Positions 1 to 46,310 of a DNA stretch of 64,000 bases are shown in pieces (position 1 is the first letter of the stretch; each line of letters begins with the position of its first letter). Source of the stretch: a virus. Below the pieces are notes generated by a model. The model was not told where the DNA came from. It searched no databases and worked only from the letters and a program-made list of their open reading frames with translations. The stretch lies in IMG/VR virus record IMGVR_UViG_3300035670_000075, positions 41,388 through 105,387 of that record. One strand, given 5' to 3'. The translations under genes and the position numbers were made by a program.

Positions 1-784
1 CAGACTGCAAATCTTTGGCGATTGGCGCTAACAGGTGCGGCATGTCATCGTAAAAACCAAGCTCTGCACCATTCTTCAGGTCGATGCCGACCATGCGGAA
101 AACGTTCGGTTTGTTATTACTGACCCATTGCACGATTGCACTGTTGAGGAAGTTTGACTTACCCCAACCCTTAGTTCCAGCAGCCAAATAAGATGCGTCA
201 CGACCGACGTAAATCTTTTTACCTTCAGCACTTTCGCCGAGGTAGATATTTAGCGGGTGTGGATCAGGATTTTGGTATTCAGCGTGGGCGGAAACTTCAT
301 TTGCTGCTGACTGCTCAACAACCTGCGCCACCTTTTCTTGTACAACCGCAACAGGCATCTGCTCACTTCTTTGTTGCATCTTCTTCAGTGCCGCCAAAGC
401 CTGCTGATACCTCGCGCTAACAGATTTGAGTTCGCCAGAAAGATGCTCGACTTGTGCGACGTACTTACGCTCAGCCTCGTTGCGCGCCGCTGCAATATCA
501 GCGGCGCGAGACTTCTTCAGCGCATCGAGTGCGCTTGAAGTCACCTTCAGTTGGCGCGTGACCGACTTGAAATCGGCTTCTAATTTATCGTAAGCCAGTC
601 TCAGGTCGGCAAAGCGGCTTTTAATCGCGTCAATCTTGCCTATCAGTTTGGTTTTCTCGCCATTCTTCCACTGACGCCACCGGGCGTCGTAGCGCTTCCA
701 TAGTTCTTTGTGAGCTATCAACGCTCCCCACATCGCCGTGGGGACGATAAAGAACGCTGCCAGTGTCCAGTTTGGATCAAGCAT
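1..784 (-). CDS. FtsK/SpoIIIE-family ATPase with N-terminal TM helix and coiled coil (runs off window edge)
   Basis: Not in the ORF track; translated by hand from ATG 784 (RBS GAAGGAG): MLDPNWTLAAFFIVPTAMWGAL...YLAAGTKGWGKSNFLNSAIVQW...FRMVGIDLKNGAELGFYDDMPHLL, matching the FtsK Walker A / IDPK / PHL motifs. Confidence 0.85.
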   Translation of the reverse strand, partial: MLDPNWTLAAFFIVPTAMWGALIAHKELWKRYDARWRQWKNGEKTKLIGKIDAIKSRFADLRLAYDKLEADFKSVTRQLKVTSSALDALKKSRAADIAAARNEAERKYVAQVEHLSGELKSVSARYQQALAALKKMQQRSEQMPVAVVQEKVAQVVEQSAANEVSAHAEYQNPDPHPLNIYLGESAEGKKIYVGRDASYLAAGTKGWGKSNFLNSAIVQWVSNNKPNVFRMVGIDLKNGAELGFYDDMPHLLAPIAKDLQS

Positions 785-2564
785 TTGCTGCTCCTTCGAG
801 TTTGAAATTAGCCCACATTCCTGAGTCTATTTCCGGTTGGATTTTTTTAGTTCCGTAGCGCGATATATGCCCGTCATTGCATTTGAATGCTTCTTGAGCA
901 GTTGACGCTTTTTCGCCCAACACAACCATCCGGTAACGAAACTTGCACGTCCAGTCATTACAATTTTCAATGACACGTCCATTTTCGTCTAAACCAGGAT
1001 GCCCAAACCCTTTTCCAGTCACTTCATCCCACGACTGACTTAGCTTGGCGATTTCATCAGAAACCGATGCGGTTTCATGTGCCGATTCAACAACGCCAGC
1101 AGGCATTGCAAAATCACGTTGCGATGCACGGCTTAAAAAATCAATCACGTCAGCTTTCTGCTGGACTGGTTCAACATCTCCAAAACTAACGGCAACAGCC
1201 GTAGCGCCCTGGACTGGGTATTGAACCACTGCGTCATGACTTCCACCGTAGGCTGTTACACCAGCACTGGCAACCACTGGTGAAGATGTGGCGCTGAATC
1301 CGCCGCCGAACACGCTGCCTTGTGCGCTTGGTTGCTCTTTGGCGGGTTCTTTTCTGGTGGTTGGGCGTGGCGGTACGGGGTCGTTATCGCCATCATCATC
1401 GCCAATACTTGCCAATTTGTCTCTGGCTTTTTCAATTTGCCGAGAGAAAAATCTTTTTGCCGCGCCAGGCAGAATAGATGCTTCATTATCTGCAACCTCG
1501 TCAATAATAGTGCCGTCATCATCTCGCAAAAATCTTAACTGCCCCTTATACATGACATGCAGCGCCCATAAAATAGCGAAACTCGCCGTCATAGCCAATA
1601 GCGTAGAGACTCTTTCAGGTGACGTTCCTACCAACTCGCCAATGCGATGTATCGCAGGCATATAAACATCGCCACCTGCGCTCCCGCTTTTAATTACAGA
1701 CTGGTCGTATTCTCTCTGCGCAATAACAACCGCCTGCTCTGCCGCGTTCAACTGCTGAGCATACTGATGGTACATTGAATACTTACCAAGTTCAGCCTGT
1801 AATTGAGCTATCAGCGGTGAGGTTGTTTCTGCTGGCTTTGATTGCTTAATTCTGTTCCAGTCGTCGCATACAGCCTTCGCTGCTGATTTCATCAACCCAT
1901 AGGACGTTGTTTTAGGCGTACATGATTGGTCGGTGATTTGTCCTCTGGTAAACTCGGCGTTGTATTGAGCATTCCAAAATTCGGCAACCTGCTTATTGTA
2001 AACGATCATCTTGCTTTCATTTGCAGCGTTAAGACGCTCGCGTTCAGCATCTATTTGAGCTTGTATGCTGCTGTACTTGGATACGTTTTCAGATAACTCA
2101 GATTCGCTGAATTTCCCGCCAGCACCAACTTTACTCAGTTCATTAACTGGAACTCCCGCTATTCTTGCCATTTGATTTTTTGCGGCATCCAAGTTTGAGC
2201 TTGAAGCGGTAACACCGGCAGAGCTTACGATGCTTTTAACCCTGTAGTCATTGAATACATCGGTGAAAAATGATGTCATCGAGAACATGGTAATAACAAG
2301 CGTAAGCCCATTCACAATGCGCGCGCTATTGGCAAGTCCATGATCCCCGATTTCAAGCGCAATAATTTCAGTTGCAATTAGCATTCTTCTGATGTAAACC
2401 AGCCCAATTGCAAAGCCAATGAGGATTGCTTGCGTGAGTTCATCATCTGACATGCGCGCCCATGTGTACGCTTCAGCAGCGAATACCAAGATCAGCATCC
2501 CCCATATGGCTGTGCTGTAGTTTGCGGCTATATCAGTTCTCTGTCTGTTGGTAACTGCCATCAC
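777..2564 (-). CDS. Multi-pass membrane protein with long coiled-coil region and low-complexity C-terminus
   Basis: About 3 N-terminal hydrophobic helices, Q/E/K/A-rich heptads, a further TM near residue 330; overlaps both neighbours. Confidence 0.7.
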   Translation of the reverse strand: MMAVTNRQRTDIAANYSTAIWGMLILVFAAEAYTWARMSDDELTQAILIGFAIGLVYIRRMLIATEIIALEIGDHGLANSARIVNGLTLVITMFSMTSFFTDVFNDYRVKSIVSSAGVTASSSNLDAAKNQMARIAGVPVNELSKVGAGGKFSESELSENVSKYSSIQAQIDAERERLNAANESKMIVYNKQVAEFWNAQYNAEFTRGQITDQSCTPKTTSYGLMKSAAKAVCDDWNRIKQSKPAETTSPLIAQLQAELGKYSMYHQYAQQLNAAEQAVVIAQREYDQSVIKSGSAGGDVYMPAIHRIGELVGTSPERVSTLLAMTASFAILWALHVMYKGQLRFLRDDDGTIIDEVADNEASILPGAAKRFFSRQIEKARDKLASIGDDDGDNDPVPPRPTTRKEPAKEQPSAQGSVFGGGFSATSSPVVASAGVTAYGGSHDAVVQYPVQGATAVAVSFGDVEPVQQKADVIDFLSRASQRDFAMPAGVVESAHETASVSDEIAKLSQSWDEVTGKGFGHPGLDENGRVIENCNDWTCKFRYRMVVLGEKASTAQEAFKCNDGHISRYGTKKIQPEIDSGMWANFKLEGAANA

Positions 2565-3661
2565 ACTTCTCCTGTTTTGATTAATGGTTCTATGTCAGCG
2601 TAAACTTGTTGTGACTTAATAAATGACGCAAACTTGTTTGCTGCGTTTACGGTATTAAACTCAACGTGAATATGACCTCCTGTTGAGCCTTTTGATGATT
2701 GCTTATACTCATCAATTACATCAAAATCTTTATCTTTCATCCCGGCAGATAACAGCCATCCATTAATTTTGCTTGCATAGTTGGCGCTCTTGTCGTGCTC
2801 AGAGATTATGAAATCCAAAGCCAATCCATCCGTATGCAGGCTTTCTGGTTTTTTATTTTTGTGCCACGCATCATTGAGCGACGTAAACCTAATAAAAGAG
2901 CTATCAACATCGGCTTTCTGAATCATTCCAGCTAAAATCCAGATAGCCTCATGGCTATCTCCGCCTTCAACAGCCTGCCCGTATCGACCTCCTTTGATCA
3001 CTAGCTCGCTTTTTTGATACTGCCTAAAATCTGAGGTTATATTTGCAACGTAGGCTCTTGTTTCTTTGAATGGAGGAATCGTGTTTTGGTACTTGCGCAC
3101 GTTACCTTGTCCGGCGTTATATGCCGCCAAAGCCAAATCAACAGAGCCAAACATTTTCAGTAACTTGGCGAGATAAGATGCTCCGCAATCTAAATTTTTA
3201 TCTATGTCGAAAATGTATTCTTGCTCAAGACCGCATTCACCGCTTGCAGTAGCAGGCATCAACTGAGTTAAGCCTGAAGCACCTTTTGGTGAGCTAATGT
3301 TTTCAATCCATACCGATTCCTTCGTTATAAGCGAACGAAACAAATACTTGTCAATGCCGTGGCTATCAGCATAGCAATCTGCTTTATTGCGCTTTCCTTC
3401 CACTTCGGCGCAATTGCCAGTAATGGGCTTGTTATTTAACAAAAAATCAAACGACAACTCCTGTTTGGCAATGCTTGCAGAAGCACTTCTAATATAAAAA
3501 TCAAAGCCTGGAATACTCGGCATCTTGAGGAAATCGAAAGCCACCATGACAGCTATGATGCATAGTGCTGGCGCAATGTTGTACCGTAACGGATACCTGT
3601 CATTCCAAAAAACCTTAACCACGATTAAGGTGATAATTACTCCAAATATAGACTCGTTCAT
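2561..3661 (-). CDS. Membrane-anchored lytic transglycosylase (SLT) fused to a C-terminal M15/LAS-like peptidase domain
   Basis: ES...SPKGASGLTQLMPATA...LALAAYNAG...ETRAYV (SLT); SLH..GLALDF...GGHIHVEF (LAS Zn ligands); N-terminal TM segments. Confidence 0.85.
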   Translation of the reverse strand: MNESIFGVIITLIVVKVFWNDRYPLRYNIAPALCIIAVMVAFDFLKMPSIPGFDFYIRSASASIAKQELSFDFLLNNKPITGNCAEVEGKRNKADCYADSHGIDKYLFRSLITKESVWIENISSPKGASGLTQLMPATASGECGLEQEYIFDIDKNLDCGASYLAKLLKMFGSVDLALAAYNAGQGNVRKYQNTIPPFKETRAYVANITSDFRQYQKSELVIKGGRYGQAVEGGDSHEAIWILAGMIQKADVDSSFIRFTSLNDAWHKNKKPESLHTDGLALDFIISEHDKSANYASKINGWLLSAGMKDKDFDVIDEYKQSSKGSTGGHIHVEFNTVNAANKFASFIKSQQVYADIEPLIKTGEV

Positions 3662-3791
3662 TGTTTGATTCTTCTATGTGATTGATATATGATTTGCACA
3701 TATACTCGTATACCAAATACTATATCATAACGATATATGATGCAAGCATATATGCGTCACATATCGCCAAACGCGACACAAAGGATATACA

Positions 3792-4166
3792 ATGGCTGCG
3801 CAAGCTAAACTTACTGATGAGTTAAATCGTGATGAATGCCTCGGTGATGAGGTATTCATGGGGAGAGTTATCGCTGTGGCGGAAGGAAAACCGAAAGTAA
3901 AGCAGCTATCAGTGCCGGGTGTTCTTTTTGATGAATGCCAAGAATCGTCGAGAGCGCTTGGACTGCCGTTTAATGAGTGGATCGTTCAAGCCATGCGTGA
4001 CAAGCTTGCGCGTGAGCGCGGCGTATCTTTATTGACGGAACCCGATATAAAACTGATAGAGGAAACGGCGCGCAGAATGGCTGAGCAAGTCGGTGATGTA
4101 GTTGCGGAAAGAACCGCTGGTCAGTACGGAATGCTGATCGAGCTATGCAGGAATGGAAAAGACTAA
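3792..4166 (+). CDS. Small ribbon-helix-helix-like regulator
   Basis: VKQLSVPGVLFDECQESSRALGLPFNEWIVQAMRDKL fits a beta-helix-helix pattern; divergent from the SLT operon. Confidence 0.5.
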   Translation: MAAQAKLTDELNRDECLGDEVFMGRVIAVAEGKPKVKQLSVPGVLFDECQESSRALGLPFNEWIVQAMRDKLARERGVSLLTEPDIKLIEETARRMAEQVGDVVAERTAGQYGMLIELCRNGKD

Positions 4167-10541: not shown

Positions 10542-11057
10542 CTATCTATCATCCATCAGGCGATTGATTTTATCTTCGCTTTCTTGCTTTTTACGCATGT
10601 ACTCAGCACGCATTTGTTGTAACTCTTCGAGCGTCCAATCGCTGCTGCTGAAAAGATCGCGTGTTTTTTGGCTAAAATCGCTTTCGCTTATTTCGCTGTT
10701 TTTCTCGTCGCTGTTGCCATTGCTTTTGTCGCTAGGCTTGTCATCTTCTATGATCTTACCAAACCTAGACTCAAATAATTTTTTCAGCGCCCCGAATATG
10801 TAGGGGAGTCCAACATAACCAGCAAAAACAGACATGCCAGTAGTGAACACAGTGTCGTTTTTGAGTTCAGGGAAAACCACTACCGTAACCGCAGCAAAAG
10901 CAATTGCAGCAAAGCCACCGCCCAAAACTTTACCGATAATATTCCTGGTAGTTAGATTGCCCTCAGCATTGAATACTGCCCCCAATGCAGATAGTGCGCC
11001 GACCAGCCAAATCAAACCTACTCTTGTGATCTCGGCATAGATATTTGGCTCCTGCAT
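10542..11057 (-). CDS. Holin-like membrane protein
   Basis: Three TM segments followed by a charged C-terminal tail. Confidence 0.65.
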   Translation of the reverse strand: MQEPNIYAEITRVGLIWLVGALSALGAVFNAEGNLTTRNIIGKVLGGGFAAIAFAAVTVVVFPELKNDTVFTTGMSVFAGYVGLPYIFGALKKLFESRFGKIIEDDKPSDKSNGNSDEKNSEISESDFSQKTRDLFSSSDWTLEELQQMRAEYMRKKQESEDKINRLMDDR

Positions 11058-11371
11058 TGGTTTTCATCGCCCTGTGCTATTCTGTGTTCATGACTTCTTA
11101 ATTCTTGTTGAATAATCGATCTAGTTTCACGACCTGATGAAATATAATAGTCATTGGCTATGAAGCCTACCCATGCTGATATGCCTATCGAAACAATCAT
11201 CACAGCAATCATTACAACCCGGAAAAGCCGATTAAAACCACGCTCTATGTTGTAGTCTGAGTGCAACTGTGAAATTTCAAATTCCAGTCGCTCCATTCGC
11301 TCTTTGTTTAATTTGCTGTCTGCTTCGATGCGAGCCAAGCGACCCTCAATGCTTTCGGCAAAGTCACCCAT
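11018..11371 (-). CDS. Coiled-coil single-TM protein (lysis-module-like)
   Basis: IEGRLARIE coiled coil followed by a TM helix. Confidence 0.55.
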   Translation of the reverse strand: MGDFAESIEGRLARIEADSKLNKERMERLEFEISQLHSDYNIERGFNRLFRVVMIAVMIVSIGISAWVGFIANDYYISSGRETRSIIQQELRSHEHRIAQGDENQCRSQISMPRSQE

Positions 11372-11933
11372 TCAATATCTCCACAAAACCGCCGTTTCCG
11401 TCTTCCATGTAATGCCACTGGTAATCTAAAGAGTCCCATCGCCATACATGTTGCCAACGGTTATCAACTACATAATCACCTTCGTAGGTGTGAACGACTA
11501 GCACCATATGGTATTCGGTACGTTCTCTATCTGCCCAACAGGTAGCTAATCGTAACTGGCTACGGTCAATACCTTCTAACATCAATAACAGTAATGCGAA
11601 TACTGCGTGTCCATCACAGTCATCAGCTATTTTGCCAGCAGGTGTTAAGTTTGGTACTTCCCAGTTGTCTATTTCACCATCAGGTGTGTAGATAAAGTTA
11701 CGAAATAGAAAACTTCTGACATCTTGAAGTATCGTTAAGATACTGGCGTTGTCGGAATGTAATTGATAACCCTCAATTCCGTTAAGACTGTATTTAAGGT
11801 AGGCAACGCGTAAACTTCGCTGGAAAGCTTTGTAGCGTTGATAATGTGAATCAGAAAGCCAATGCTTTTCGCCGGTTTGAATAAACGGTTCTACAGCGAA
11901 AAACTCTTTTAGCTTTCTAAACAGCCATTTCAT
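11364..11933 (-). CDS. Transglutaminase-like cysteine peptidase (BTLCP/C93, LapG-like)
   Basis: Y..D...DNW..P, DDCDGHA, HMVLVV, YVVDNR give a Cys-His-Asp triad. Confidence 0.85.
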   Translation of the reverse strand: MKWLFRKLKEFFAVEPFIQTGEKHWLSDSHYQRYKAFQRSLRVAYLKYSLNGIEGYQLHSDNASILTILQDVRSFLFRNFIYTPDGEIDNWEVPNLTPAGKIADDCDGHAVFALLLLMLEGIDRSQLRLATCWADRERTEYHMVLVVHTYEGDYVVDNRWQHVWRWDSLDYQWHYMEDGNGGFVEILNG

Positions 11934-18299: not shown

Positions 18300-19190
18300 T
18301 TAATCCAGGTACTCGGATACCAGGACTTCGACGTTGTTCCAGTCGGGGTTGGTTGCGCCACTTGCCAAACGCTCGACCTTGATGACCTCGTTCGCGGCAG
18401 ACTCGTTGCTCGGACCGCACACCAACAAGGTTGGGCGGATACCCAGCGGACGGCCTTTGTCGCTCTTCAGGGTTTTCATCGCGGCGCGCGCTGCGCGGTA
18501 GTTGGTGGCGTCTAAGGTAGCATTGCTACGATACGCCATTTGCCAAAAACCGTAACCGCCATTGACGCGAGCATCGACGCCGTACAGGTATTCGTTGCGA
18601 TGGAAAACGTTTTCATCGGTTTCGTCTACTTTGCTGACGAAGTTATAGCCCTTGCGCACCTGGAAGATAAACGGCTTCAACGGGCGACGGGTATCCAGCA
18701 AGAACCACGGCTTACCGGCACCGGATTGATAGTTGGAAGTGGCGACAATACTGCCTGCCTCACCAACCGGATGATCAGTATCGAAGAATGCCTGACCGTC
18801 GTAGCAGTTATTGGTCGTGCCGTTCACCAGCAAATCGAAAACGATTTGGTCTGGATGCGTTGCGGCGGCGTAACCCATTTCCTGCATCATCGGCGAGTAG
18901 ATGCCGTAGTTGTCATCTTCGATGTCGTCGCGCGACACACCAACTGTGGCTTCATGGCGCTTGTTGCTGATGGTGTAGTCATGTGCTGCCATGCTTTGAA
19001 TTTGGCGGTCGCCAATCCATTCGCGCATTTGCGGGAACTGACCCAGCCAGGCATAACGGTTTTGCGAGCTAGTGCTAGGCACCATCGTCGCCAGCATGTT
19101 CCAGCGCGATTCCGCCATGCGGAACCCCATGTTGAACGCGGCGTTGTAAGCGATAAACAGATCGCTCAGGTTACTGCGATTGATGATCAT
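18300..19190 (-). CDS. Mu gpT-like major capsid protein
   Basis: YAWLGQFPQMREWIGDR, CYDGQAFFDTDHPV, WFLLDT.RPLKP.IFQ, YGFWQMAY. Confidence 0.95.
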   Translation of the reverse strand: MIINRSNLSDLFIAYNAAFNMGFRMAESRWNMLATMVPSTSSQNRYAWLGQFPQMREWIGDRQIQSMAAHDYTISNKRHEATVGVSRDDIEDDNYGIYSPMMQEMGYAAATHPDQIVFDLLVNGTTNNCYDGQAFFDTDHPVGEAGSIVATSNYQSGAGKPWFLLDTRRPLKPFIFQVRKGYNFVSKVDETDENVFHRNEYLYGVDARVNGGYGFWQMAYRSNATLDATNYRAARAAMKTLKSDKGRPLGIRPTLLVCGPSNESAANEVIKVERLASGATNPDWNNVEVLVSEYLD

Positions 19191-19200
19191 GTCTATCTCC

Positions 19201-19611
19201 TTACTTGATTTCGACCCAGACACCCGTGGTGTCTAAATCGACAATTTTGCCAGCGGCGGATCGCGTGCCAGTGCCGTCGGTTTTCGCAACGGTTTGGTCA
19301 TCGACGATATAGCAAGTGTCGCCAATTTGCGCTGCGGTGATTTCGTCAGCCGCCGCCGAGTTACCAAAGCGGAACACGCCTTTGCGTACCAGCACGTTGA
19401 CGGCACCATCAGCGCCAGCCGAGTTATCGACCGTTGCTTGGTAAACGCCATCTGCAATCAAGCCGGTTGCGGTGCTGCCGGGCGCGGAATAACCCGTCGC
19501 ATTCAACACGGCGATACCGCCTGCGTAGCAAGTGGTGGTCGCGGCAACCGGACGGTTGAACTCGTCGCCTTTGCGCTCAGGGGTGGCGCGGTCTGCGGTT
19601 AAAGCTGCCAT
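19201..19611 (-). CDS. Mu-like head decoration/cement protein
   Basis: MAALTADR.TP, CYIVDDQTVAKT...RSAAG; lies directly before the capsid gene. Confidence 0.75.
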   Translation of the reverse strand: MAALTADRATPERKGDEFNRPVAATTTCYAGGIAVLNATGYSAPGSTATGLIADGVYQATVDNSAGADGAVNVLVRKGVFRFGNSAAADEITAAQIGDTCYIVDDQTVAKTDGTGTRSAAGKIVDLDTTGVWVEIK

Positions 19612-19614
19612 GTG

Positions 19615-20235
19615 TTAGCCCCCCATCAGCAGGTTGTTTTTGGAGCGCACTTGCTGTGCGGATTTTTTGAACGCATCAGCATCCAAGCCCATTTGACGCG
19701 CGATGGTAGACTGCGCGATGGTCAAGCCGCTGTCTTCGTCGTATTCGTGGACGCCGCCGGTTTGAGAAGCTGCAAACGCACGCATCGGCGTACATGCCGC
19801 CAAATACTCTTTCAGTCCGTCGATGTTTTGCGCACCCATGCGCTTAGCCCAGGTGACTTCGGCTTGGCTGACCAGCTTGCCGCTGGCTTGAGCTTCGGCA
19901 ATCAGGGATTCCAACTCGCGGGCTTTCGCGTCGCGCTCTTGGGCTTCCAGTTTTTCCGTCAGCTTGGCGATGATTTCTTTCTGCTCCATCAGCACACTCT
20001 GATCGGGCAGAACATCATTACCTTTGGTAGTTGCGGCGGGGGCAGCAGTGGATTGTTTATCGGCAAGAATTGCCGCGATTTTTTCGTCTTGCGCTTTCAA
20101 GTTGGCTTGCATCGTTTCGATAGCGGAGGATGCTTTGGCGGACTTGGCGATCAGATTACCGACCGCCTCAGCCACCGCGTCATCGCCAGCATCTTCCGGC
20201 AGGCCAAGCGCAGTTTTCATTGCTTGATAGTCCAT
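19615..20235 (-). CDS. Nested in-frame scaffolding protein (lambda Nu3-like)
   Basis: Internal AGGAG 7 nt upstream of in-frame ATG (MDYQAMK) right after the protease domain. Confidence 0.65.
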   Translation of the reverse strand: MDYQAMKTALGLPEDAGDDAVAEAVGNLIAKSAKASSAIETMQANLKAQDEKIAAILADKQSTAAPAATTKGNDVLPDQSVLMEQKEIIAKLTEKLEAQERDAKARELESLIAEAQASGKLVSQAEVTWAKRMGAQNIDGLKEYLAACTPMRAFAASQTGGVHEYDEDSGLTIAQSTIARQMGLDADAFKKSAQQVRSKNNLLMGG

Positions 20236-21084
20236 TGAATGACTCCTGTTTTGAGTTTGCTTGGATTGACTGGGTGATAACTCGCTGATCACGGATTCCA
20301 GGCTACCCAACCTGTCCGCCAGCCCTGCTTCAACAGCCTTGGCTCCCGTCAGGATGCCGCCGCCACCGAATCTATTAAGAACTGTGTCGATTGATACGCC
20401 ACGGTTTCGCGCCACATCACGCACGAACACATCGGCTAAATCGTCCACGTTTTGTTGAATTTGCGAGCGCCCGTCTTCCGTCGCCGGATCGGGGCGTTTA
20501 TTCGGGGATTGCGATGACACGATTTCGTGCTCAACAACGCCAAGCCCCTCTTTCATCTTCCGGCTGTCAACATAAGTAGCAACAACACCGATAGAACCCA
20601 GTTGCGCGGTTTTATCAACCACGATGTCGCCCTTCTTGACTGCGCTGGACAGCCAGTACGCAGCACTTGCCGCCATGCCACCAACGTAGGCTATGATTCG
20701 CTTCTGCTTGGCGTAGGCGCGAATGTGGGACGCCAACTCGCTAATCCCGGTGACATGCCCGCCTGGGCTGTCAACCAATAACACGATGCCGTTGACTTCC
20801 GGGTTATCGACCGCAGCGGAGATGTCTTTTGCCAACACTTCGACCGACGTTGCGCCGCTGATTTCCGTCATTAAATTGGCTTTGGGGAAAATCGCGCCTT
20901 CAATTGGAATGATTGCAACGCCATCCCGATAGGTGACAGTGCGTGTATATTGCAGCGGCTCGCCACCACGCATCAGAACTGAGTGGTACTCGTTCTCGCG
21001 CTGCGCAATCGTGCGAATCATCTCCAGCCATTCGGCTGTAATCAGCCACGGCGCGGAGTCGATGAGGTGAATTAACGGTTTCAT
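19615..21084 (-). CDS. S49 head maturation protease fused to scaffold
   Basis: VDSPGG, MAASAAYWL, GSIGVV, A..AGLADRLGS; coiled-coil C-terminus. Confidence 0.92.
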   Translation of the reverse strand: MKPLIHLIDSAPWLITAEWLEMIRTIAQRENEYHSVLMRGGEPLQYTRTVTYRDGVAIIPIEGAIFPKANLMTEISGATSVEVLAKDISAAVDNPEVNGIVLLVDSPGGHVTGISELASHIRAYAKQKRIIAYVGGMAASAAYWLSSAVKKGDIVVDKTAQLGSIGVVATYVDSRKMKEGLGVVEHEIVSSQSPNKRPDPATEDGRSQIQQNVDDLADVFVRDVARNRGVSIDTVLNRFGGGGILTGAKAVEAGLADRLGSLESVISELSPSQSKQTQNRSHSMDYQAMKTALGLPEDAGDDAVAEAVGNLIAKSAKASSAIETMQANLKAQDEKIAAILADKQSTAAPAATTKGNDVLPDQSVLMEQKEIIAKLTEKLEAQERDAKARELESLIAEAQASGKLVSQAEVTWAKRMGAQNIDGLKEYLAACTPMRAFAASQTGGVHEYDEDSGLTIAQSTIARQMGLDADAFKKSAQQVRSKNNLLMGG

Positions 21085-21180
21085 GTATCGGATAATAACC
21101 TGTTTATTTTTGCAAGTCATTGTTATAATGGTAAAAATAGCCTGCTAGGTAGCTATGTATAAACTATAGAGGATTATGCG

Positions 21181-22658: not shown

Positions 22659-22898
22659 TTAACCACCACTCGCAAACCCCGCGTAATTTCTAGCCTTCTC
22701 AGCCGCAAGCCTTTCAATCTGCTTGCGCCTACGCTCTGCTTCCAACTCCGCTGTCCCATCTGGCACAACCAAATAAGCTTGCTGCTTTACGTCATCCCAC
22801 ATCATCCTTGCGGGGTCGAATGCCGCTGGACTGATGGGGATTATCTTCTCGTTCTGCTTTGGTTGTCTGCCGATAACATCAGGAAAATCACTCGCCAT
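22659..22898 (-). CDS. Hypothetical protein
   Basis: Overlaps the portal stop; RBS GAGG. Confidence 0.5.
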   Translation of the reverse strand: MASDFPDVIGRQPKQNEKIIPISPAAFDPARMMWDDVKQQAYLVVPDGTAELEAERRRKQIERLAAEKARNYAGFASGG

Positions 22899-24303
22899 TC
22901 AAATCTTCCTCTTCCACGTCGCTTTCGTTGTCATCGTCACTTACCGGATCGATTGAGTCATCCGTCATGTCATCTTCAGGCTGACTATCAACTGACGGAT
23001 CTTGTGGCGGCATTTCCACATCGCTTTCGCCACCGCCAATATCCTCGTAATCATCGCCGTAACGCTCGGCCACTGATTCCGGCTTCAACCTGTACCCCAT
23101 AGCGAACAACTCTTTATCGCGGGCAACGCGCTTGTCCTCGTCTTCAGTAGCAGAAATATCGAAGAAGATTTGCGGCACGCGGCGCAGGTCGCTGGTTCCG
23201 GTATTGAGCAACATCAGCATCGTCAACAATTGATGCCGAGTGGTTGGCTCGTATTGACGGAAATCTGAAACTGCCAAGTCCCACATTTCCGTGTTGCGCA
23301 TATCGCCACCGGAGAATACCCCAGTACGCTCCGCAAAAGCCTTTTCAGAACCAGTCAGCAGGCGGCGAGCCAGTGACCCAAACATATTGTACCAATTGAT
23401 GAAGCTTGCCGTTTGACCTTTTACCGCATCAAGCTCTTTGATGTTCATGCGCTCAGGCATAATGCCGTAAGCCTTTTCGATCATCATTGCCATTGCCGAC
23501 TTGAGTTTGCGCTGGTCGGTTTTCGATGTGCCTTCAGGGAATGTGGCGAACAGTTTTGGTATACCGTAATTGTGTAGGAACGCTTGTCCGTCGCCATGGG
23601 TTTCCATGCGCGATAACCACGCCCAAATCAGCGCCATGAACAAGCCTGACTCATGCGGATAGCCTGGCACTGCTTGGTGCTTATGCACGACCCATCCAAA
23701 CGGCCAAAATGGTTCGTCACCGCCAAGCCGTGTTTTGTAGCGCAACACGTTTTTGTTTTTACGCCACGGCGTCGCGACAGAGATATTGCGCTGCTGAAAT
23801 TCAGGAACCCACACGCCGTCGATTTTCTTCCACCCGCTGCCGCCTTCCTCGTCGGCAATTTCCATCAGCGAAAACCCGGCACCGATACCGGCAGACAAGC
23901 CAAGCAGATAGTCGTCGAAGTTTTTGATTTGCGCCAGGATGTCGCGCAAGATTTTTACGTTCTTTTTGTCTTCGCGCTTCGCCAGTCCACGGTCTACCAC
24001 AAATCCGTTTTCATCGCGGTAGCTGTCCCAGGTGTAAATGTCGAACGACACTGACAGCGGTGCGGTCGCCCGCATGTTAAAGCCCCACATGATGTCGGGG
24101 TCAAAGCGCAGCATCATCCACCACAGGCGGGATAATCTTGTCAGGTCGCCGTCATTGGCTTCGCCGATGATGTTGTAGATGTCGGTTGGGCGTAGATTAC
24201 GGTAAATCTCGCTGTAATCATTCTGCGCCAAACCGAATGAGATGGCTTCGCCGTCGCTTTCGGTTTGCGATTCTTTCAGTGCTTTAATCGCCATTGCTAC
24301 CAA
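22888..24303 (-). CDS. Portal protein, DUF935 / Mu gp29 family
   Basis: A..GDL, G...GFSLMEI, GWVVHKH...GYP..SGL..L.W, F...YGIP; follows terL. Confidence 0.88.
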   Translation of the reverse strand: MVAMAIKALKESQTESDGEAISFGLAQNDYSEIYRNLRPTDIYNIIGEANDGDLTRLSRLWWMMLRFDPDIMWGFNMRATAPLSVSFDIYTWDSYRDENGFVVDRGLAKREDKKNVKILRDILAQIKNFDDYLLGLSAGIGAGFSLMEIADEEGGSGWKKIDGVWVPEFQQRNISVATPWRKNKNVLRYKTRLGGDEPFWPFGWVVHKHQAVPGYPHESGLFMALIWAWLSRMETHGDGQAFLHNYGIPKLFATFPEGTSKTDQRKLKSAMAMMIEKAYGIMPERMNIKELDAVKGQTASFINWYNMFGSLARRLLTGSEKAFAERTGVFSGGDMRNTEMWDLAVSDFRQYEPTTRHQLLTMLMLLNTGTSDLRRVPQIFFDISATEDEDKRVARDKELFAMGYRLKPESVAERYGDDYEDIGGGESDVEMPPQDPSVDSQPEDDMTDDSIDPVSDDDNESDVEEEDLNGE

Positions 24304-25919
24304 TCCTCTTCTTCATATTCATCACCACCGACACCGCCAGTTACAGGTTCAAAGCCGTAATCTTCAAAACCAAGCCCAAGTTCCGACATGTACTTTAGCG
24401 CTTGCGTCATCGAATCAACTTGGTCTTTGAATTGACTCGACGGGAAATTCATCATTTCTTCCTCGAACAACGCCAGCCAAGGCGCATTTTCAGGCAGGAA
24501 AACATTTCCCGCGACGAACTGTGCGGAGATTGATTCTGCGCGCGCCAATTTATCTCCCTGCACATAAAACACGTTACCGCGTTCAACGCGGTTGTCGCTC
24601 GCCTTCTTTGCCACCGGCATCACCGGGACAATATTGAGTGACGGTCGCCGGTCTACACCGAGTTCGTTCAACATCAATCTCCATTCAGCCTCGCGCATTG
24701 AGCGCAGTTGCGAGATAAGTTCCGTCCCGTTTGCCTTGTCCTCAATTAAGATGGCGTCTGGCTTGAACGCATCGGCGCGGGTAATCACCGCCCGCAGCAA
24801 ATCAGAGAACTCGACGCGCTGCCGGTAAACGTCCAGTAGGTAATAGCCGTTGCGCGTTTTTGCCCACTCGGTACACACCGAATATGCGTTACCATCTTTT
24901 TTGCTTTTCGCCGTATCCCACGATGCAACACGCTGGATAATATCACCTATAGAGGATTGATTTCTATATCGCTTGATGTTTACCGCCTTAAATAATCCGC
25001 CACCACGCGGCACTGGACGCTGTTGATGCTGTGCGGCGTAGTTGTATGAACCGAGTTTTAGCTTCTGCCCGTCGATAAACTTGCGGTCGAAGCCGCGCTC
25101 CGGCCACAACAACTCGCCTTCCTGCGTGCGTGGGTCAATAAAGCCGAGCGGGTTGTGGATCATCACCTGCGGTTCGTACTCGGAGGGGATTTTTAGCACT
25201 ACCCAGTTATCCGGCGAGTTGTCCATGAGATATTGCGCAATATCGCGGGTATCGAGGCGCTGCATGATAAGTATTTTGGCGTGTTTTTGCGGGTTGTTGA
25301 TACTTGCTTCCCACGAATTGCGCCACCATTCCACGACATTATCAAAGTCGGCATTGCTGAGTTGACCGATTTTGCGCGAGTCCATGAGGTCGTCGGCAAC
25401 GTTGTAATCACCGCCGTTGCCAAGGATGCCAGAGCCTACCGAAGTGGCGTAGCGGAATCCGCTGTTGTCGTTTTCGTATTTTGACTTGGTATTCTGATCG
25501 CCTGTCAACACGAATTTGTCACCCCAGTAGCGTTGATACAGAGGTGACTGGATGATACGCCGCGAGTCAACGCTATCGCGCAAAGACAGACTGGCGCTGT
25601 GGCTGGCGTAGAGAAACTTGGAGGACGGTACTTTCGTCCACCACCAGGGCGTGAGGCACGCGGATGCCAGCAAAGACTTGGTGTGGCGGCGCGGGATGTT
25701 GATCATGAGGTTGGTAATCTCGAATCGCAGTGCGGCTTCGAGATGCTCACCCACAGCGTAGTGGTGCCAGTTCAACTGCAAGTCCTCGCCACGTACCGCT
25801 TGCCACATCACCCGCATGAACTCGACAAGACTGCGCTCAGCCAGTTCGCGAACGAGGATGTCGCGGTCGGTGCTGAGTAGTTTTTTGGCGAGCGGAGATA
25901 GTCTTGGTTGTTTTTGCAT
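24297..25919 (-). CDS. terL: Terminase large subunit
   Basis: LMINIPRRHTKS, DD, IMQRL, Y.AQHQQRP, SWDTA, IEDKANG, DQVDSMTQAL. Confidence 0.95.
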   Translation of the reverse strand: MQKQPRLSPLAKKLLSTDRDILVRELAERSLVEFMRVMWQAVRGEDLQLNWHHYAVGEHLEAALRFEITNLMINIPRRHTKSLLASACLTPWWWTKVPSSKFLYASHSASLSLRDSVDSRRIIQSPLYQRYWGDKFVLTGDQNTKSKYENDNSGFRYATSVGSGILGNGGDYNVADDLMDSRKIGQLSNADFDNVVEWWRNSWEASINNPQKHAKILIMQRLDTRDIAQYLMDNSPDNWVVLKIPSEYEPQVMIHNPLGFIDPRTQEGELLWPERGFDRKFIDGQKLKLGSYNYAAQHQQRPVPRGGGLFKAVNIKRYRNQSSIGDIIQRVASWDTAKSKKDGNAYSVCTEWAKTRNGYYLLDVYRQRVEFSDLLRAVITRADAFKPDAILIEDKANGTELISQLRSMREAEWRLMLNELGVDRRPSLNIVPVMPVAKKASDNRVERGNVFYVQGDKLARAESISAQFVAGNVFLPENAPWLALFEEEMMNFPSSQFKDQVDSMTQALKYMSELGLGFEDYGFEPVTGGVGGDEYEEEDW

Positions 25920-28091: not shown

Positions 28092-29237
28092 ATGGTTTAT
28101 TACAATGAATTTGACCCCGAAGCTGCGCAATGGCTGCGTAATTTAATCGTCGCAGGGGTGATTCCGTGCGGCGATGTGGACGAGAGGAGTATTGTTGATG
28201 TCAGCCCAAATGACCTTGCCGGGTATGAGCAGTGTCACTTCTTTGCCGGAATTGGCGGATGGGCTTACGCGCTTAGGCTTGCAGGATGGGGAGATTCTAA
28301 CGTATGGACAGGAAGCCCGCCGTGCCAGCCTTTTAGCGCAGCAGGAAAAGGACTTGGCGCGCAAGACGAGCGCAACCTGTGGTACGCATTCTACCGCCTC
28401 ATCCGCGAGTGTAAACCTGCAACGCTCTTTGGAGAGCAGGTTGCGCAAGCAATTGGCTACGACTGGCTCGACACTGTATCGACTGACTTGGAACAAGAAG
28501 GTTACGCGGTCGGGGCGGCAGTATTGCCAGCTTGCAGCGTCGGCGCACCGCACAAACGCGAAAGACTGTGGTTCGTGGCCGACAACCAAAGTGCAGAATC
28601 AGAATGCACCTGGCGAGCACGGCAACGGTGGACAAGACCTTCAGACGGTGGCGGAATATACGAACTGGAGCACGCCGATAGTCAACGACGAGAAGATGAG
28701 TACGCATTGCAACGGCGGCACTCGCAAGGATGGAAGCAAGGCTATATTTCTGAAGCTTCCGGGAATGGCTTAACTCACGACTTGGCCGATAGCGGCAACC
28801 AGAGATTACAAGGGGGGGTATCAAAACGGCAGAATTCGCAACGACAAGTTATCGACAGACGCATTGGATATAACTGCTCAACTCACAATATGGCCGACAG
28901 CCAGATCGACGGATTACAAGATGGGCAAGACCGGAACTGGAGACGGGAGGGAGTTTGCGGACAATCTATGTCAGGCATCCTTGAAGACGGGTCTGACGGA
29001 CTCACTCGCGGATTCTGGAGTAATGCCGATTGGGTGTACTGCCGAGACGAAAAGTACCGCCCAATTGAACCCGGACTTAAGCCGTTGGCTCATGGGGTAT
29101 CCGGTAGAGTGGCTATTGGCAGCGCCGGTAAAACTTATTGGTACACGCGAAAATCAGCGCTCAAAGGATTCGGCAATGCCATCGTACCGCAAGTGGCTGC
29201 GGAATTTATTAAAGCATTCATGACGAGAGACGAATAA
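28092..29237 (+). CDS. DNA cytosine-5 methyltransferase, catalytic (alpha) subunit
   Basis: HFFAGIGG (I), GSPPCQPFS (IV), GEQV (VI), PHKRERLW (VIII), GFGNAIVP (X); motif IX absent from this frame. Confidence 0.9.
   Translation: MVYYNEFDPEAAQWLRNLIVAGVIPCGDVDERSIVDVSPNDLAGYEQCHFFAGIGGWAYALRLAGWGDSNVWTGSPPCQPFSAAGKGLGAQDERNLWYAFYRLIRECKPATLFGEQVAQAIGYDWLDTVSTDLEQEGYAVGAAVLPACSVGAPHKRERLWFVADNQSAESECTWRARQRWTRPSDGGGIYELEHADSQRREDEYALQRRHSQGWKQGYISEASGNGLTHDLADSGNQRLQGGVSKRQNSQRQVIDRRIGYNCSTHNMADSQIDGLQDGQDRNWRREGVCGQSMSGILEDGSDGLTRGFWSNADWVYCRDEKYRPIEPGLKPLAHGVSGRVAIGSAGKTYWYTRKSALKGFGNAIVPQVAAEFIKAFMTRDE
28198..29223 (+). pseudogene. Overlapping-frame beta subunit of the C5 MTase (TRD-like repeats + motif IX), interrupted by TAA at 28771-28773
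   Basis: ORFs 28174-28773 and 28864-29223 share one frame; four W(P/S)(T/I) repeats, then LNPDLSRWLMGYPVEW; start uncertain. Confidence 0.75.
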
Positions 29238-29749
29238 TGAAAGAATCCCCAATCATCTTCTCACCCGCAATGATCGCCGCGCTGCTACGCGGCGACAAAC
29301 ACCAGACTCGCCGCCTGCGCAATATCAATGGCGATATTTTATGGGTGCGTGAATCGGTTTGGATTTACGGAAAGTGGGTAAGAAACGGTGTATCTCCAGA
29401 AGGTAGATATAAATTTAGCTTTAAGGTACACGAAAGCAAACAAGTCAGTTACGACACGCCGACAGGCGCACTGGCTGACAAGATGCTTGGTAATCTCGGC
29501 TGGAAGCATGTGCCGTCGATTCATATTCCGCGATGGGCTTCGCGGATTACATTGCACGTTTCAGAAAGAAGGATTGAACGCTTAAAAGAAATATCCGTTG
29601 CCGACGCTATTGCGGAAGGCATCGATAAAAACGCGGTAGACCCACGCCGCGAATTTGCGCATTTATGGGAACAAATTCACGGACTTGGCGCTTGGGCTGA
29701 AAACCCCGTGGTTCAAGTCATCACTTTCACTGTTAAAAAAGGAAATTAG
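29237..29749 (+). CDS. ASCH-domain protein
   Basis: PIIFS..MI.ALL.G.K.QTRR, LWVRE, PSIHIPRWASRITL, ERL..IS..DA.AEG, W..NP.V. Confidence 0.85.
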   Translation: MKESPIIFSPAMIAALLRGDKHQTRRLRNINGDILWVRESVWIYGKWVRNGVSPEGRYKFSFKVHESKQVSYDTPTGALADKMLGNLGWKHVPSIHIPRWASRITLHVSERRIERLKEISVADAIAEGIDKNAVDPRREFAHLWEQIHGLGAWAENPVVQVITFTVKKGN

Positions 29750-40354: not shown

Positions 40355-40915
40355 TCACTGCAACGTCACATCATCAGCACCAAGTCTATCTTGGATGCCT
40401 ATTAACAAAGCCAATTCATCCTGGCTCAACTGCTTCACAAGCTCGCGTTCGTCTTTGACTTTCAACTCACCACTAACTTCAGACCTGCTATCTACGCTAA
40501 GCCTGTCGAAGCGCCCAAACTCATCGCGGTAACGTCGCTCCAACAGCCATGCAATCGGTTGCCACGGTGGAGGCGCGGCTTTCTGAATGACCTCGCGGCT
40601 GAGTAGGTTGCCGTCTGCGTCGTAGCGGCGCTTTTCTTCTATAATCACTTGCTTCTGCGTTGAAGCGTCTAGCATCTTTCTAAGCAGGCTTTTCTTGTAC
40701 TCAAGCTTTGCTTTTTTTATAGTCTCTGAAAACTCCGAAAACACAGGAGACTTTCTTTCATCTCCGCTTTTCATCCAATCATAAAAAGCAGCTTCACTAA
40801 CGCCAGCAGCAGTGCAAGCATCTGCATTTGAAAGCCCTGCCTTAAAAGCCTCCACCAGTATCGCTATAATGTCAGGCGTGAATACCCTCTTCCGCCCGGT
40901 CTTACTCTTCGCCAC
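40355..40915 (-). CDS. Terminase small subunit-like protein
   Basis: GRK..FTP, HTH (AC.AAGVS..AFYDW), WQ..AWLLERRY..EFG. Confidence 0.75.
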   Translation of the reverse strand: MAKSKTGRKRVFTPDIIAILVEAFKAGLSNADACTAAGVSEAAFYDWMKSGDERKSPVFSEFSETIKKAKLEYKKSLLRKMLDASTQKQVIIEEKRRYDADGNLLSREVIQKAAPPPWQPIAWLLERRYRDEFGRFDRLSVDSRSEVSGELKVKDERELVKQLSQDELALLIGIQDRLGADDVTLQ

Positions 40916-41579
40916 TTTGTCTCACCACCTTCTTTCTCTTCTGCACATCGGGGTAGCGCAGAATAATTCCATCTAATTCAGTTTCAAATGCCAGCAAGTC
41001 ATCCATTGGTACACTGACTGTTATCTTAGCAACTTGCTCCATATTGTCGCCGCCACCATCGCCACCGAAGTCATTGCCATCACCGCCGAAGCCATCACCA
41101 AATCCGCTGTTTTGCAAACTCGCAAACAACGCGCCAGTGTCAACTTCAAGTGCCTTCAGTGCATCGGAAAAGCCAGCCTCCAACGCACTCAAGTCCCACT
41201 CGCCACTCACACCTGGTAGTGGGTTGTCGAGCAGTAAGATTTGCTCCTCTTGCGCCGGGGTCAGCCCGCTGCACACAACGGCTGGAGCGTGAGTAACACC
41301 CATGTACAGCACAGCATCGACACGCAAATGCCCGGCGCACGACATCAACTTGCCAGTCCTATCTGACAATATCGGCAATCGATTCATAAACAACTCAGGA
41401 GACTGTTTAATCCCCTCTGCGAGATTATGAATCTCTACCTTGCCGTACTTGCGCGGATTGGCGCTGCCATTGACAGATGTATAGGGGACTATCTCTCTGT
41501 AATCAACCGTCAGCAACTCGCACTTGGCGGAAGCGGTTATTACGTCCAAAAGCTGTTTTTCTGTTTTTTGCTGCGACAT
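40902..41579 (-). CDS. ParB/Srx-like protein
   Basis: NPRK, AGHLRV.A, DN....GEWD...L; sits upstream of terS. Confidence 0.7.
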   Translation of the reverse strand: MSQQKTEKQLLDVITASAKCELLTVDYREIVPYTSVNGSANPRKYGKVEIHNLAEGIKQSPELFMNRLPILSDRTGKLMSCAGHLRVDAVLYMGVTHAPAVVCSGLTPAQEEQILLLDNPLPGVSGEWDLSALEAGFSDALKALEVDTGALFASLQNSGFGDGFGGDGNDFGGDGGGDNMEQVAKITVSVPMDDLLAFETELDGIILRYPDVQKRKKVVRQSGEE

Positions 41580-41667
41580 CTTGCGTTAACGCCGTTGTTT
41601 GTTTACAATATGTTTACATAATCTAATATAGATAGATTATACACAGAATTCACACAGGATAACAAAG

Positions 41668-43173
41668 ATGGGCGGCAGCATAATCACCAAAACCATGTTC
41701 ATGTCAGGCGTGCAATGCACGCTAAAACTATGGCACGAACAGCATGCCGACAGCAGAGAACCGCCGTCAGAAAGCACGCTGCGCGCAATGGCAGAAGGCA
41801 ATGAAGTCGGCGCACTGGCGCGTGCGCAATATCCTGGCGGCGTATTTATCGCCGAAACAAACTACGAAGCCGCTGCCGCTGCGACGCGCGAGGCATACGA
41901 AAACGGCGCGTCGGTAATCTACGAAGCGGCATTTTTGGTAGATGATATGTACGCCAAAGTCGATATTTTGCATATCGACGAGGAAGGCAACGCAACCATC
42001 ATTGAAGTAAAAGCCACTACGTCGGTAAAACCTGAGCATCTTCCAGACGTAGGCTTCCAATGGCACGTTGTCGTAGCGTCTGGTATCAACGTGACTAACG
42101 TATACCTGATGATTCTCGACGACACCAAGCTGTGTCCGTCTGATAACTACTTCAAACTGGAAGATGTCGCAGAGAAAGCGCAAATCTGGAAAGACGCTGC
42201 ACAGTCAAAATCGGTTGCGCTGATGAAAACAGCCAATCAAGCAACACAGCCAACACAACAAATAGGATCACACTGCAACACGCCGTATGACTGCCAATTC
42301 ACCGATAAATGTTGGGCGCATGTACCTGATGAGAATAGCATATTTACAATCCCATTCCTGCGTGGGAGAAAAAAACAAGACCTGATCGACGCAGGAATAT
42401 TCCATATCAACCACTTGCCAACTGAATTTGAGGCAACTGCGGCGCAACAGGTGTGGATTGATGTGGCAACCAGTGGCAAGCCAATCGTCAACATTGCCGG
42501 AATCAAAGACGAGCTATCGCAACTGGAATACCCGCTGGCTCACTTCGATTTTGAGACAATGGCATACGCCATCCCAAGATTTGCCGGGATGAAGCCGTAT
42601 CAGCAGTTCCCATTCCAATTTTCACTGCATGTGCAGAGAAAAAATGGGAAAATAACCCATCAAGAATATTTACATGTCACTCGCGACGACCCGCGAAAAC
42701 ACATTGCAGAAGCCATGCTTGCTTCTATTCCAGACGGCGGACATATCATCACCTGGAACAAACATTTCGAGTCTGGACGCATCATGGAAATGGCAGCGTG
42801 GCTGGAGTCAACCGGAGAAATCTCAAAAGCCAACCAGATGCGCAAGTTCAACGACCGCCTGTGGGACTTGGCTGAGATATTCCGCATCAAAGGCACTGGC
42901 GAAGTGCTGTGGCTGCACCCCGACATGCAGGGGCGCTACAGTATCAAATATGTTCTTCCAGTGATTGCGCCGCACTTGAGCTACAAGGGCATGAAAGTCG
43001 CCAAGGGCGATGAAGCAATGAACGCCTGGGCAAAGCTGATCATGCTTCCAGACGGCAGCGCCGAGAAGCAGGAATTGACATCGGCATTGCTTGCATACTG
43101 CAAGCAGGACACATACGCGATGGTGGTTATTTTGGATTATCTGTGGAGTCTTGTATGGAAAAGCGGTTTGTAG
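41668..43173 (+). CDS. DUF2779 protein (RecB/Cas4-like nuclease + RNase H-like domain)
   Basis: K..F..G.QC...LW, VDIL...IEVKA, C..PY.C.F...CW, DFET, FQFSLH, SIKYVLP, YC..DT. Confidence 0.88.
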   Translation: MGGSIITKTMFMSGVQCTLKLWHEQHADSREPPSESTLRAMAEGNEVGALARAQYPGGVFIAETNYEAAAAATREAYENGASVIYEAAFLVDDMYAKVDILHIDEEGNATIIEVKATTSVKPEHLPDVGFQWHVVVASGINVTNVYLMILDDTKLCPSDNYFKLEDVAEKAQIWKDAAQSKSVALMKTANQATQPTQQIGSHCNTPYDCQFTDKCWAHVPDENSIFTIPFLRGRKKQDLIDAGIFHINHLPTEFEATAAQQVWIDVATSGKPIVNIAGIKDELSQLEYPLAHFDFETMAYAIPRFAGMKPYQQFPFQFSLHVQRKNGKITHQEYLHVTRDDPRKHIAEAMLASIPDGGHIITWNKHFESGRIMEMAAWLESTGEISKANQMRKFNDRLWDLAEIFRIKGTGEVLWLHPDMQGRYSIKYVLPVIAPHLSYKGMKVAKGDEAMNAWAKLIMLPDGSAEKQELTSALLAYCKQDTYAMVVILDYLWSLVWKSGL

Positions 43174-46286: not shown

Positions 46287-46310
46287 GTATTATTTTTATA
46301 GTTGACACAG

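Follow-up and report, generated by a model that had tools for sequence, protein, structure and literature searches.

Why would a tailed phage that already has a terminase for packaging also carry an FtsK-type motor, set in one operon with a membrane protein and a cell-wall hydrolase? The question is raised by the beginning of a 64,000-nucleotide stretch of DNA, hereafter the window, which comprises bases 41388–105387 of the virus record IMGVR_UViG_3300035670_000075 (IMG/VR; 105,387 bp; CheckV completeness 95%). An initial annotation of the window had proposed that three overlapping genes there form an envelope-spanning DNA translocation module. The DNA before the window was also read and the whole record was laid out, which completed the motor gene. 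We favor reading the operon as a TraB/Spd-like inner-membrane module that handles phage double-stranded DNA (dsDNA) at the cell envelope, and we put the probability of this at about 0.35.

Layout and control of the operon

The genes lie on the minus strand in the order hydrolase (gene 1), membrane protein (gene 2), FtsK-type motor (gene 3) and small Cys-rich protein (gene 4). The parts of the operon and its control region are as follows.

Window 2561–3661, minus strand: gene 1, 366 amino acids (aa), predicted membrane-anchored bifunctional murein hydrolase with SLT and LAS-type domains
Window 777–2564, minus strand: gene 2, 595 aa, polytopic membrane protein with four hydrophobic segments, otherwise helical
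Genome 40768–42171, minus strand: gene 3, 467 aa, FtsK-type motor; window 1–784 holds its first 261 codons, and 619 nucleotides (nt) more lie before the window
Genome 40436–40744 (outside the window), minus strand: gene 4, 102 aa, Cys-rich putative zinc protein (CxxC...CxxC), 23 nt after gene 3
L002 8992–9045 (outside the window), minus strand: terminator hairpin, −36.7 kcal/mol, z −10.4, with a T run
Window 3662–3791: divergent control region, 130 bp, with two exact copies of GATATATGAT at 3684 and 3732 (48 bp apart)
Window 3792–4166, plus strand: divergent 124-aa gene, a candidate repressor of the operon by its position (open reading frame list)

All three overlapping minus-strand genes of the initial annotation are present in the list of open reading frames (ORFs). 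Their junctions are TGATG and ATGCTTGA overlaps, both with Shine–Dalgarno-like sequences; genes 2 and 3 overlap by 8 nt. Gene 4, whose product had no sequence match in the PDB, and the strong hairpin behind it extend the unit to four genes with a clear end. The layout supports a single autonomous, translationally coupled transcription unit with an operator-like region and a terminator. A convergent regulator gene separates the operon from the neighboring tail gene.

The spacer between the operon and the divergent gene had been described as repeat-rich. Locally this is so: besides the two exact copies of GATATATGAT it contains inverted partial copies (ATCATA-N6-TATGAT, around 3724–3741). Across the window, however, GATATATGAT is not enriched (4 matches versus 3.05 expected), and so only its local arrangement in the spacer is of note. 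Sigma-70-like sites in the spacer were called for the plus strand only. The divergent gene itself exists as annotated, but its assignment as a ribbon-helix-helix (RHH)-like regulator found no family match: the 124-aa protein matched nothing in Pfam, PHROG, PADLOC or the PDB, and the strand-helix-helix pattern at aa 36–75 is RHH-like by eye only.

The encoded proteins

The gene 1 protein begins with two hydrophobic segments (aa 1–19 and 29–47) separated by an Arg-containing loop. Its SLT domain (PF01464, aa 98–193) was recognized by Pfam with an E-value of 1.2e-21 and matched Slt70 and Slt homologs in the PDB (E 6.5e-10); the catalytic E-S motif, E115-S116, is invariant in five sequences. Two zinc-ligand motifs, H-x6-D and H-x-H, lie in the C-terminal domain and are kept in P0124, L031 and L032 (four sequences with gene 1), and the ESM Atlas model of the protein resembles Hedgehog and Peptidase_M15_3 clusters (TM-score 0.55–0.72). 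No Pfam M15 model matched this domain at E ≤ 0.1, nor did any PDB sequence. With the SLT match, the zinc motifs and the predicted fold taken together, the earlier description of an anchored dual muralytic enzyme therefore stands, the SLT half by Pfam and the peptidase half by conserved motifs and predicted fold. Hydrophobicity and the positive-inside rule support a periplasmic location for both hydrolase domains. The closest SLT-LAS relative is 90% identical.

Gene 2 had no Pfam or PHROG family and, judged by its sequence, founds a new, unnamed family of phage proteins. The protein consists of three transmembrane segments, a long helical hairpin, a fourth transmembrane segment, an acidic/proline linker and a C-terminal domain with conserved Cys and His residues. 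The tip of the hairpin is conserved (FW...C-x-P...YGxMKxAA...C). A word-indexed search returned one relative (P0121), which is 49% identical overall and about 90% identical in the C-terminal 200 aa, the rest being poorly conserved. An exhaustive profile search of 1.84 billion representatives added 23 distant relatives (E 2e-19 to 7e-4), and those that were aligned have in common the three transmembrane segments, the helical region with the tip motif, the fourth transmembrane segment and a variable tail. P0245 matched nothing in phage and plasmid collections (megablast, tblastn).

Using 24 sequences, AlphaFold modeled aa 1–345 of gene 2 as a bundle of helices in the membrane plus a long hairpin whose helices each run for about 45 residues, at a predicted local-distance difference test (pLDDT) score above 90. 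With two sequences the score was 36, and the C-terminal domain remained below 50 even with 24. By the positive-inside rule we infer that the hairpin is periplasmic and the tail cytoplasmic. Tails elsewhere in the family are helix-turn-helix-like in many members (for example Pfam HTH_7 in P0250, 2e-7) and CxxC zinc ribbons in others; the family is therefore one of membrane proteins with a DNA-binding-type cytoplasmic tail. Foldseek found no PDB match to the N-terminal model at E ≤ 0.001, a wider structure search returned generic helical hairpins only (Z < 8), and the matches in BFVD were uncharacterized phage proteins only.

The gene 3 protein has one N-terminal transmembrane segment, followed by some 130 aa of helical/coiled-coil stalk and a RecA-like motor of the FtsK/SpoIIIE type (PF01580, aa 171–396, E 1e-21; 77.8 bits, cut-off 24). 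Its Walker A (GTKGWGKS), Walker B (VVIDE) and sensor T-Q motifs align to those of P. aeruginosa FtsK and of TcpA, a clostridial coupling protein for conjugation, and by these motifs the motor appears intact for ATP use. Hydrophobicity and the positive-inside rule support a cytoplasmic motor. Among solved structures the best match was P. aeruginosa FtsK (2iuu, 8e-23), followed by TcpA (6o1w-z, 1e-16, improving to 9e-22 over 238 columns with few gaps when a two-sequence profile was used) and EssC-type proteins (4e-7). One full-length relative was found among 5.8 billion clustered proteins, on a 2.8-kb contig (P0002, 43% identity); the other matches were cellular FtsK proteins, aligned over the motor only at 30–36% identity. 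Phage and plasmid collections, searched with the gene by megablast and tblastn, gave domain-level FtsK matches only.

Distribution and phage setting

To what extent do these genes travel together? A profile scan of species genomes gave two further loci with gene 2 homologs, and searches of their order added more. Scans with the operon proteins, as single sequences and as alignments, gave no loci in viral or metagenome contigs; in genome contigs the alignment A1 gave none, and the alignment A5 did find loci. The loci and what lies upstream of gene 2 or its homolog are as follows.

This phage: SLT-LAS, 366 aa; own regulator and terminator
L006, Mu-like prophage in a Thiotrichales metagenome-assembled genome (MAG): SLT, 243 aa; after an O-like replication initiator
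L031, short contig: SLT-LAS, 371 aa, 30% identical over both domains, 4-nt overlap
L032, 67.8-kb contig: SLT plus LAS-like, 426 aa, two N-terminal transmembrane segments; gpA-type terminase about 3 kb downstream on the other strand
L005, phage-like region: RNase_T-domain gene
L030: Mu Gam, no hydrolase; MuA- and MuB-like genes further upstream

A muralytic gene thus stands directly upstream of gene 2 or its homolog at four of the six loci, and the pair of hydrolase and gene 2 is kept at 25–38% identity in L006, L031 and L032. In prophages, the pair or the gene 2 homolog occupies early/replication regions (L006, L030) and is found neither beside holins nor among virion genes. Of 55 genomes from the Beggiatoa-type order, to which a Candidatus Parabeggiatoa MAG belongs, 6 carried the gene 2 family; when the class was sampled evenly, none of the 398 genomes outside that order did. 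The hydrolase and gene 2 pair is the conserved core of the operon, and prophages of Beggiatoa-type bacteria carry it as an early/replication-region module. To this pair the present phage lineage has added the genes for FtsK and the zinc protein, in tight coupling. Of the co-occurrence of three genes that the initial annotation had looked for, the pair recurred, but the three-gene set was not found elsewhere.

The gene content of the record is that of a temperate phage of the siphovirus type with a Mu-like head module. The terminase that the initial annotation had noted is present, along with other virion and lysis genes.

Window 24297–25919, minus strand: terminase large subunit
Window 22888–24303, minus strand: portal
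Window 19615–21120, minus strand: protease
Window 18300–19223, minus strand: gpT-type major head protein, 53% identical to Vibrio and Pseudomonas B3/D3112-like phages
Window 10542–11057, minus strand: P2-type holin (PF04550)

Because the head genes resemble those of Pseudomonas and Vibrio phages, the host should be a proteobacterium with a Gram-negative-type envelope. The lysis region (window 10542–11933) comprises the holin, a small transmembrane protein and, at the place expected of an endolysin, a cysteine protease of the Peptidase_C93 (BTLCP) family adjoining the holin. No classical endolysin was found in the scanned parts of the genome, and the SLT-LAS enzyme of gene 1 is accordingly the sole recognized muralytic enzyme found. 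It lies 7 kb from the holin in a different transcription unit, outside any lysis cassette; with this distance and its own regulator, a classical endolysin role is unlikely.

Within the tail gene block, the operon has a tail gene on one side and the tape measure gene on the other. On the plus strand, just past the adjoining tail gene, are an HU/IHF-like protein (PF00216, 6345–6665) and a Dam methyltransferase (PF05869, 6919–7539), and on the other side of the operon are a second methylase (N6_N4_Mtase) and DHFR. With these genes flanking it, the operon is part of an accessory-gene island in the tail gene block. Before the window, an 8036-aa ORF (genome 11590–35700) contains a tape-measure core (PF10145, aa 454–681) as its sole Pfam domain. 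In the related prophage L006 the tape measure is long as well (1937 aa), and one could speculate that very long tails suit thick-sheathed hosts. The two phages further share a phrog_874 protein (L006 7548–9180; window 29237–29749), segments of the tape measure and a tyrosine recombinase (27% identity to window 46302–47387). These resemblances suggest that phages of the Beggiatoa-type order may draw on a distant common gene pool.

A phage-encoded transfer-messenger RNA (tmRNA) lies before the window at genome 38578–38914, with the tag ANDERYAVAA (ARAGORN). A DNA search against the tmRNA genes of the Beggiatoa-type order matched only at the generic conserved 3′ end, which is no help in assigning a host. 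The phage DNA is present in three DNA runs of one subsurface metagenome study, and no RNA runs holding the phage stretch were listed. The same samples (runs X1 and X3; L002 9381–10490 and 11168–11389) contain contigs 87–91% identical to parts of the FtsK gene and a P0121-like gene 2 variant whose divergence sets in upstream of about residue 392, where P0121 has its break too. No contig among those assembled from the samples joined the FtsK-gene variants to the gene 2 variant. The occurrence of both in the same samples means that several related phage lineages coexist there.

Strand-skewed 8-mers exist across the genome, for instance the GTTTGCGCCAG family (raw counts without a codon-bias control). 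The overlapping words GTTTGCGC, TTTGCGCC, TTGCGCCA and TGCGCCAG are skewed genome-wide by 14:1, 15:4, 21:7 and 15:3, again without a codon-bias control, and on the same uncontrolled footing the largest excess among skewed words was 13–14 versus a maximum of 8–10 in block shuffles.

Possible functions and known systems

In the reading that we favor, gene 2 would be a polytopic membrane platform whose long periplasmic stalk reaches the murein layer and whose cytoplasmic tail is a small domain of a nucleic-acid-binding type. Gene 1, anchored beside it, would cut glycan strands (SLT) and peptide stems (LAS) locally. On the same membrane, held by one helix and a coiled-coil stalk, gene 3 would act as a hexameric FtsK-type ATPase, pulling or pushing DNA there. 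The DNA recognition of the missing gamma domain might be taken over by the gene 4 zinc protein or the gene 2 tail, and the divergent regulator would hold a potentially toxic gene set off until required. The analysis shows the gene structure, the domains, the predicted topology, the conservation of the pair formed by genes 1 and 2 and the confinement of the gene 2 family to one order in the sample; that the proteins associate physically, that DNA is what they act on, which way it is transported and which host is involved we infer. Most likely the module would serve to pass phage DNA through, or keep it in place across, the cytoplasmic membrane and the septal wall of adjoining cells in a filament, or do so at division. 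The Beggiatoa-type order includes multicellular filaments. A bolder extension, which we consider unlikely, is that phages of Beggiatoa relatives use an early wall cutter and a DNA-binding membrane protein for virion-free passage of their genomes from cell to cell through septa, reinforced here by an FtsK-type pump. If true, this would be a Gram-negative, phage-borne counterpart of the spreading carried out by Streptomyces TraB/Spd. To our knowledge, virion-independent movement of phage DNA between cells is no accepted part of phage biology, and FtsK-type dsDNA transfer is established for actinomycete plasmids only.

Several observations weigh against DNA transport. The FtsK gene of the operon is missing from L005, L006, L030, L031 and L032 and from all 55 genomes of the Beggiatoa-type order, in which every FtsK was a cellular one, about 700 aa long. 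The motor lacks a match to the FtsK alpha domain (PF17854), though nearly all its cellular matches have one, and its alignment to the FtsK structure begins at chain residue 180, past that domain. The initial annotation had suggested looking for a gamma/winged helix-turn-helix (wHTH) domain in the completed gene: there was no PF09397 match, and only about 30 residues follow the motor. The FtsK gamma domain activates XerD, and without one in gene 3 the suggested cooperation with a dif-like/Xer site is unlikely. After the sensor T-Q there is a Ser (ATQSPD), both in this phage (P0001) and in P0002. In P. aeruginosa FtsK the corresponding Arg632 (ATQRP) of loop II is a DNA-gripping residue (bioRxiv 10.1101/2022.01.03.474797). 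With its motor motifs present and the alpha and gamma domains and loop Arg missing, gene 3 is thus a member of the FtsK/SpoIIIE family and not FtsK proper, and it may not grip DNA in the way that FtsK does. The C-terminal domain of this phage's own gene 2 had no DNA-binding family in Pfam and no usable Atlas match. No clt-like cluster of 8-mers was seen near the operon, no 8-mer occurring more than four times in genome 40000–45700. The operon holds no outer-membrane component, while the host has a Gram-negative-type envelope. Finally, the link to a filamentous host is one that we draw from the distribution of the gene 2 family and from G+C content (49% in the phage, 47–50% in the G002 loci). 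What holds of the proposed translocation module is its coupled unit, predicted topology and TraB/Spd- and TcpA-like architecture; it is weakened in that no FtsK gene was found at the other loci, no gamma domain in the motor and no clt-like cluster near the operon.

Could the operon instead remodel the wall under the control of an ATPase and transport no DNA at all? Here gene 2 would act as a transmembrane relay whose periplasmic coiled coil turns the tethered hydrolase on or off, much as in FtsEX-EnvC/PcsB or SteAB-RipA, with the FtsK-like ATPase as energy source or trigger, and the use would be early softening of the wall, control of division or the septum, or help in lysis. We regard this as possible, if doubtful. 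It agrees with the hydrolase and gene 2 being the conserved core and FtsK optional, with the SLT-LAS enzyme standing alone beside a holin and Peptidase_C93, and with a motor that has lost its DNA-gripping Arg and might not act on DNA. The structure matches of gene 2 were only to coiled-coil proteins, among them the murein-hydrolase partners SteB-RipA and Cg1735 (Z about 7), but such generic scores are expected of any long helical hairpin. Moreover, the HTH_7 and zinc-ribbon tails of the family would be superfluous in a pure hydrolase regulator, no FtsK-family ATPase is known to regulate a hydrolase, and the distance to the holin and the separate regulator speak against a part in lysis. Alternatively, the operon may join two unrelated functions: the pair as an early membrane sensor or regulator that senses in the periplasm and binds DNA with its cytoplasmic tail (a one-component system of the ToxR/CadC type), with a wall enzyme, and FtsK with the zinc protein, acquired separately, for segregation of phage or host DNA or for host takeover. 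The absence of FtsK from all other loci fits this, as does the mosaic conservation of the relatives (90% for SLT-LAS, 49% for gene 2 with a 90% C-terminus, 43% for FtsK). PHROGs places phage FtsK-like proteins under morons and host takeover, and gene overlaps are common in phages regardless of function. Yet an overlap with its own Shine–Dalgarno sequence joins gene 2 to FtsK, a single terminator serves all four genes, and the FtsK protein is tethered to the membrane, which would be needless for purely cytoplasmic segregation; we find this rather unlikely.

A prophage-expressed module for superinfection exclusion or defense, intercepting incoming DNA at the inner membrane, would suit a moron-like unit that stands by itself among the tail genes, with a promoter region and a terminator of its own. 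In PADLOC the motor resembled the FtsK-like C-terminal domains of SspH and DndH (E 1.7e-27). That match covers the shared ATPase domain only, however, the other operon proteins matched no defense family and a wall hydrolase has no obvious role in exclusion, which makes defense decidedly improbable. The initial annotation had also raised the case that the proteins are virion components; they would then be a tail lysin with injection helpers. The operon does sit between tail and tape measure genes, and the SLT domain matched families that PHROG calls lytic tail protein and internal virion protein. But these matches are limited to the SLT domain, the operon has its own regulator and terminator, all three proteins carry membrane anchors, and homologs lie in early/replication regions of prophages; given the anchors and the early context, we hold a virion role to be very improbable. 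Whatever the mechanism, the operon contains a new family of polytopic proteins with a predicted periplasmic stalk and a DNA-binding-type tail, tightly linked to a bifunctional wall hydrolase. The restriction of the gene 2 family to one bacterial order in our sample makes the hydrolase and gene 2 pair a concrete and testable one.

How does the operon compare with known systems? The "DNA translocation operon" of the Bacillus phages 0305phi8-36 and SPO1 was likewise inferred informatically, includes membrane anchor proteins and is dispensable in the laboratory (PMC3357382). It is similar in being a phage-borne set of genes with membrane anchors and an inferred role in DNA translocation, but it has a relaxase and a VirD4/AAA_10-type ATPase without a transmembrane segment, lacks a hydrolase and is unrelated in sequence. 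FtsEX-EnvC/PcsB and SteAB-RipA likewise bring together a murein hydrolase, an ATPase in the cytoplasm and a polytopic protein that has a helical element in the periplasm. Their ATPase, however, is of the ABC type and they have no DNA-binding tails, so that the resemblance is one of layout only, with generic Z scores.

Cellular FtsK/SpoIIIE proteins provide the best motor match (33–35% identity over about 250 aa) and are also tethered to the membrane through a linker. In contrast to gene 3, with its one transmembrane segment and coiled-coil linker, FtsK has four transmembrane segments, alpha and gamma domains (KOPS reading, XerD activation) and Arg in place of Ser in loop II. TcpA of pCW3, Orf21 of Tn916 and ConQ of ICEBs1 are closer in form: each has about 460 aa, is anchored in the membrane at its N-terminus and carries an FtsK-type motor that lacks a gamma domain. 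Of the solved relatives of gene 3, TcpA is the second best. These systems are reportedly paired with membrane-associated two-domain wall hydrolases, TcpG and CwlT. They differ in requiring VirB4-, VirB6- and VirB8-like proteins and a relaxase, in having Firmicutes as hosts and, in TcpA, in retaining the loop II Arg that gene 3 lacks; no VirB4-, VirB6- or VirB8-like or relaxase Pfam family was found in the four operon proteins or in their neighbors within 5 kb.

The spd/traB operons of Streptomyces have overlapping stop and start codons and a repressor that acts on intergenic repeats, and unregulated traB is toxic; SpdB2, an integral membrane protein that forms oligomers, binds both dsDNA and murein (PMC4447253). 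Like these systems (pSVH1, pIJ101), the phage operon combines a membrane-bound FtsK-like ATPase with an integral membrane partner in overlapping genes, has a candidate repressor beside intergenic repeats, and contains neither a relaxase nor classical type IV secretion genes. Sequence relationship is confined to the ATPase domain, and in TraB a wHTH at the C-terminus reads clt repeats of 8 bp, whereas the phage motor has no such domain. The phage operon for its part adds a dedicated bifunctional hydrolase, and its carrier is a tailed phage of a host with a Gram-negative-type envelope. By this analogy, we tentatively place the TraB/Spd apparatus for dsDNA transfer and spreading as the system that may be closest to the operon in function.

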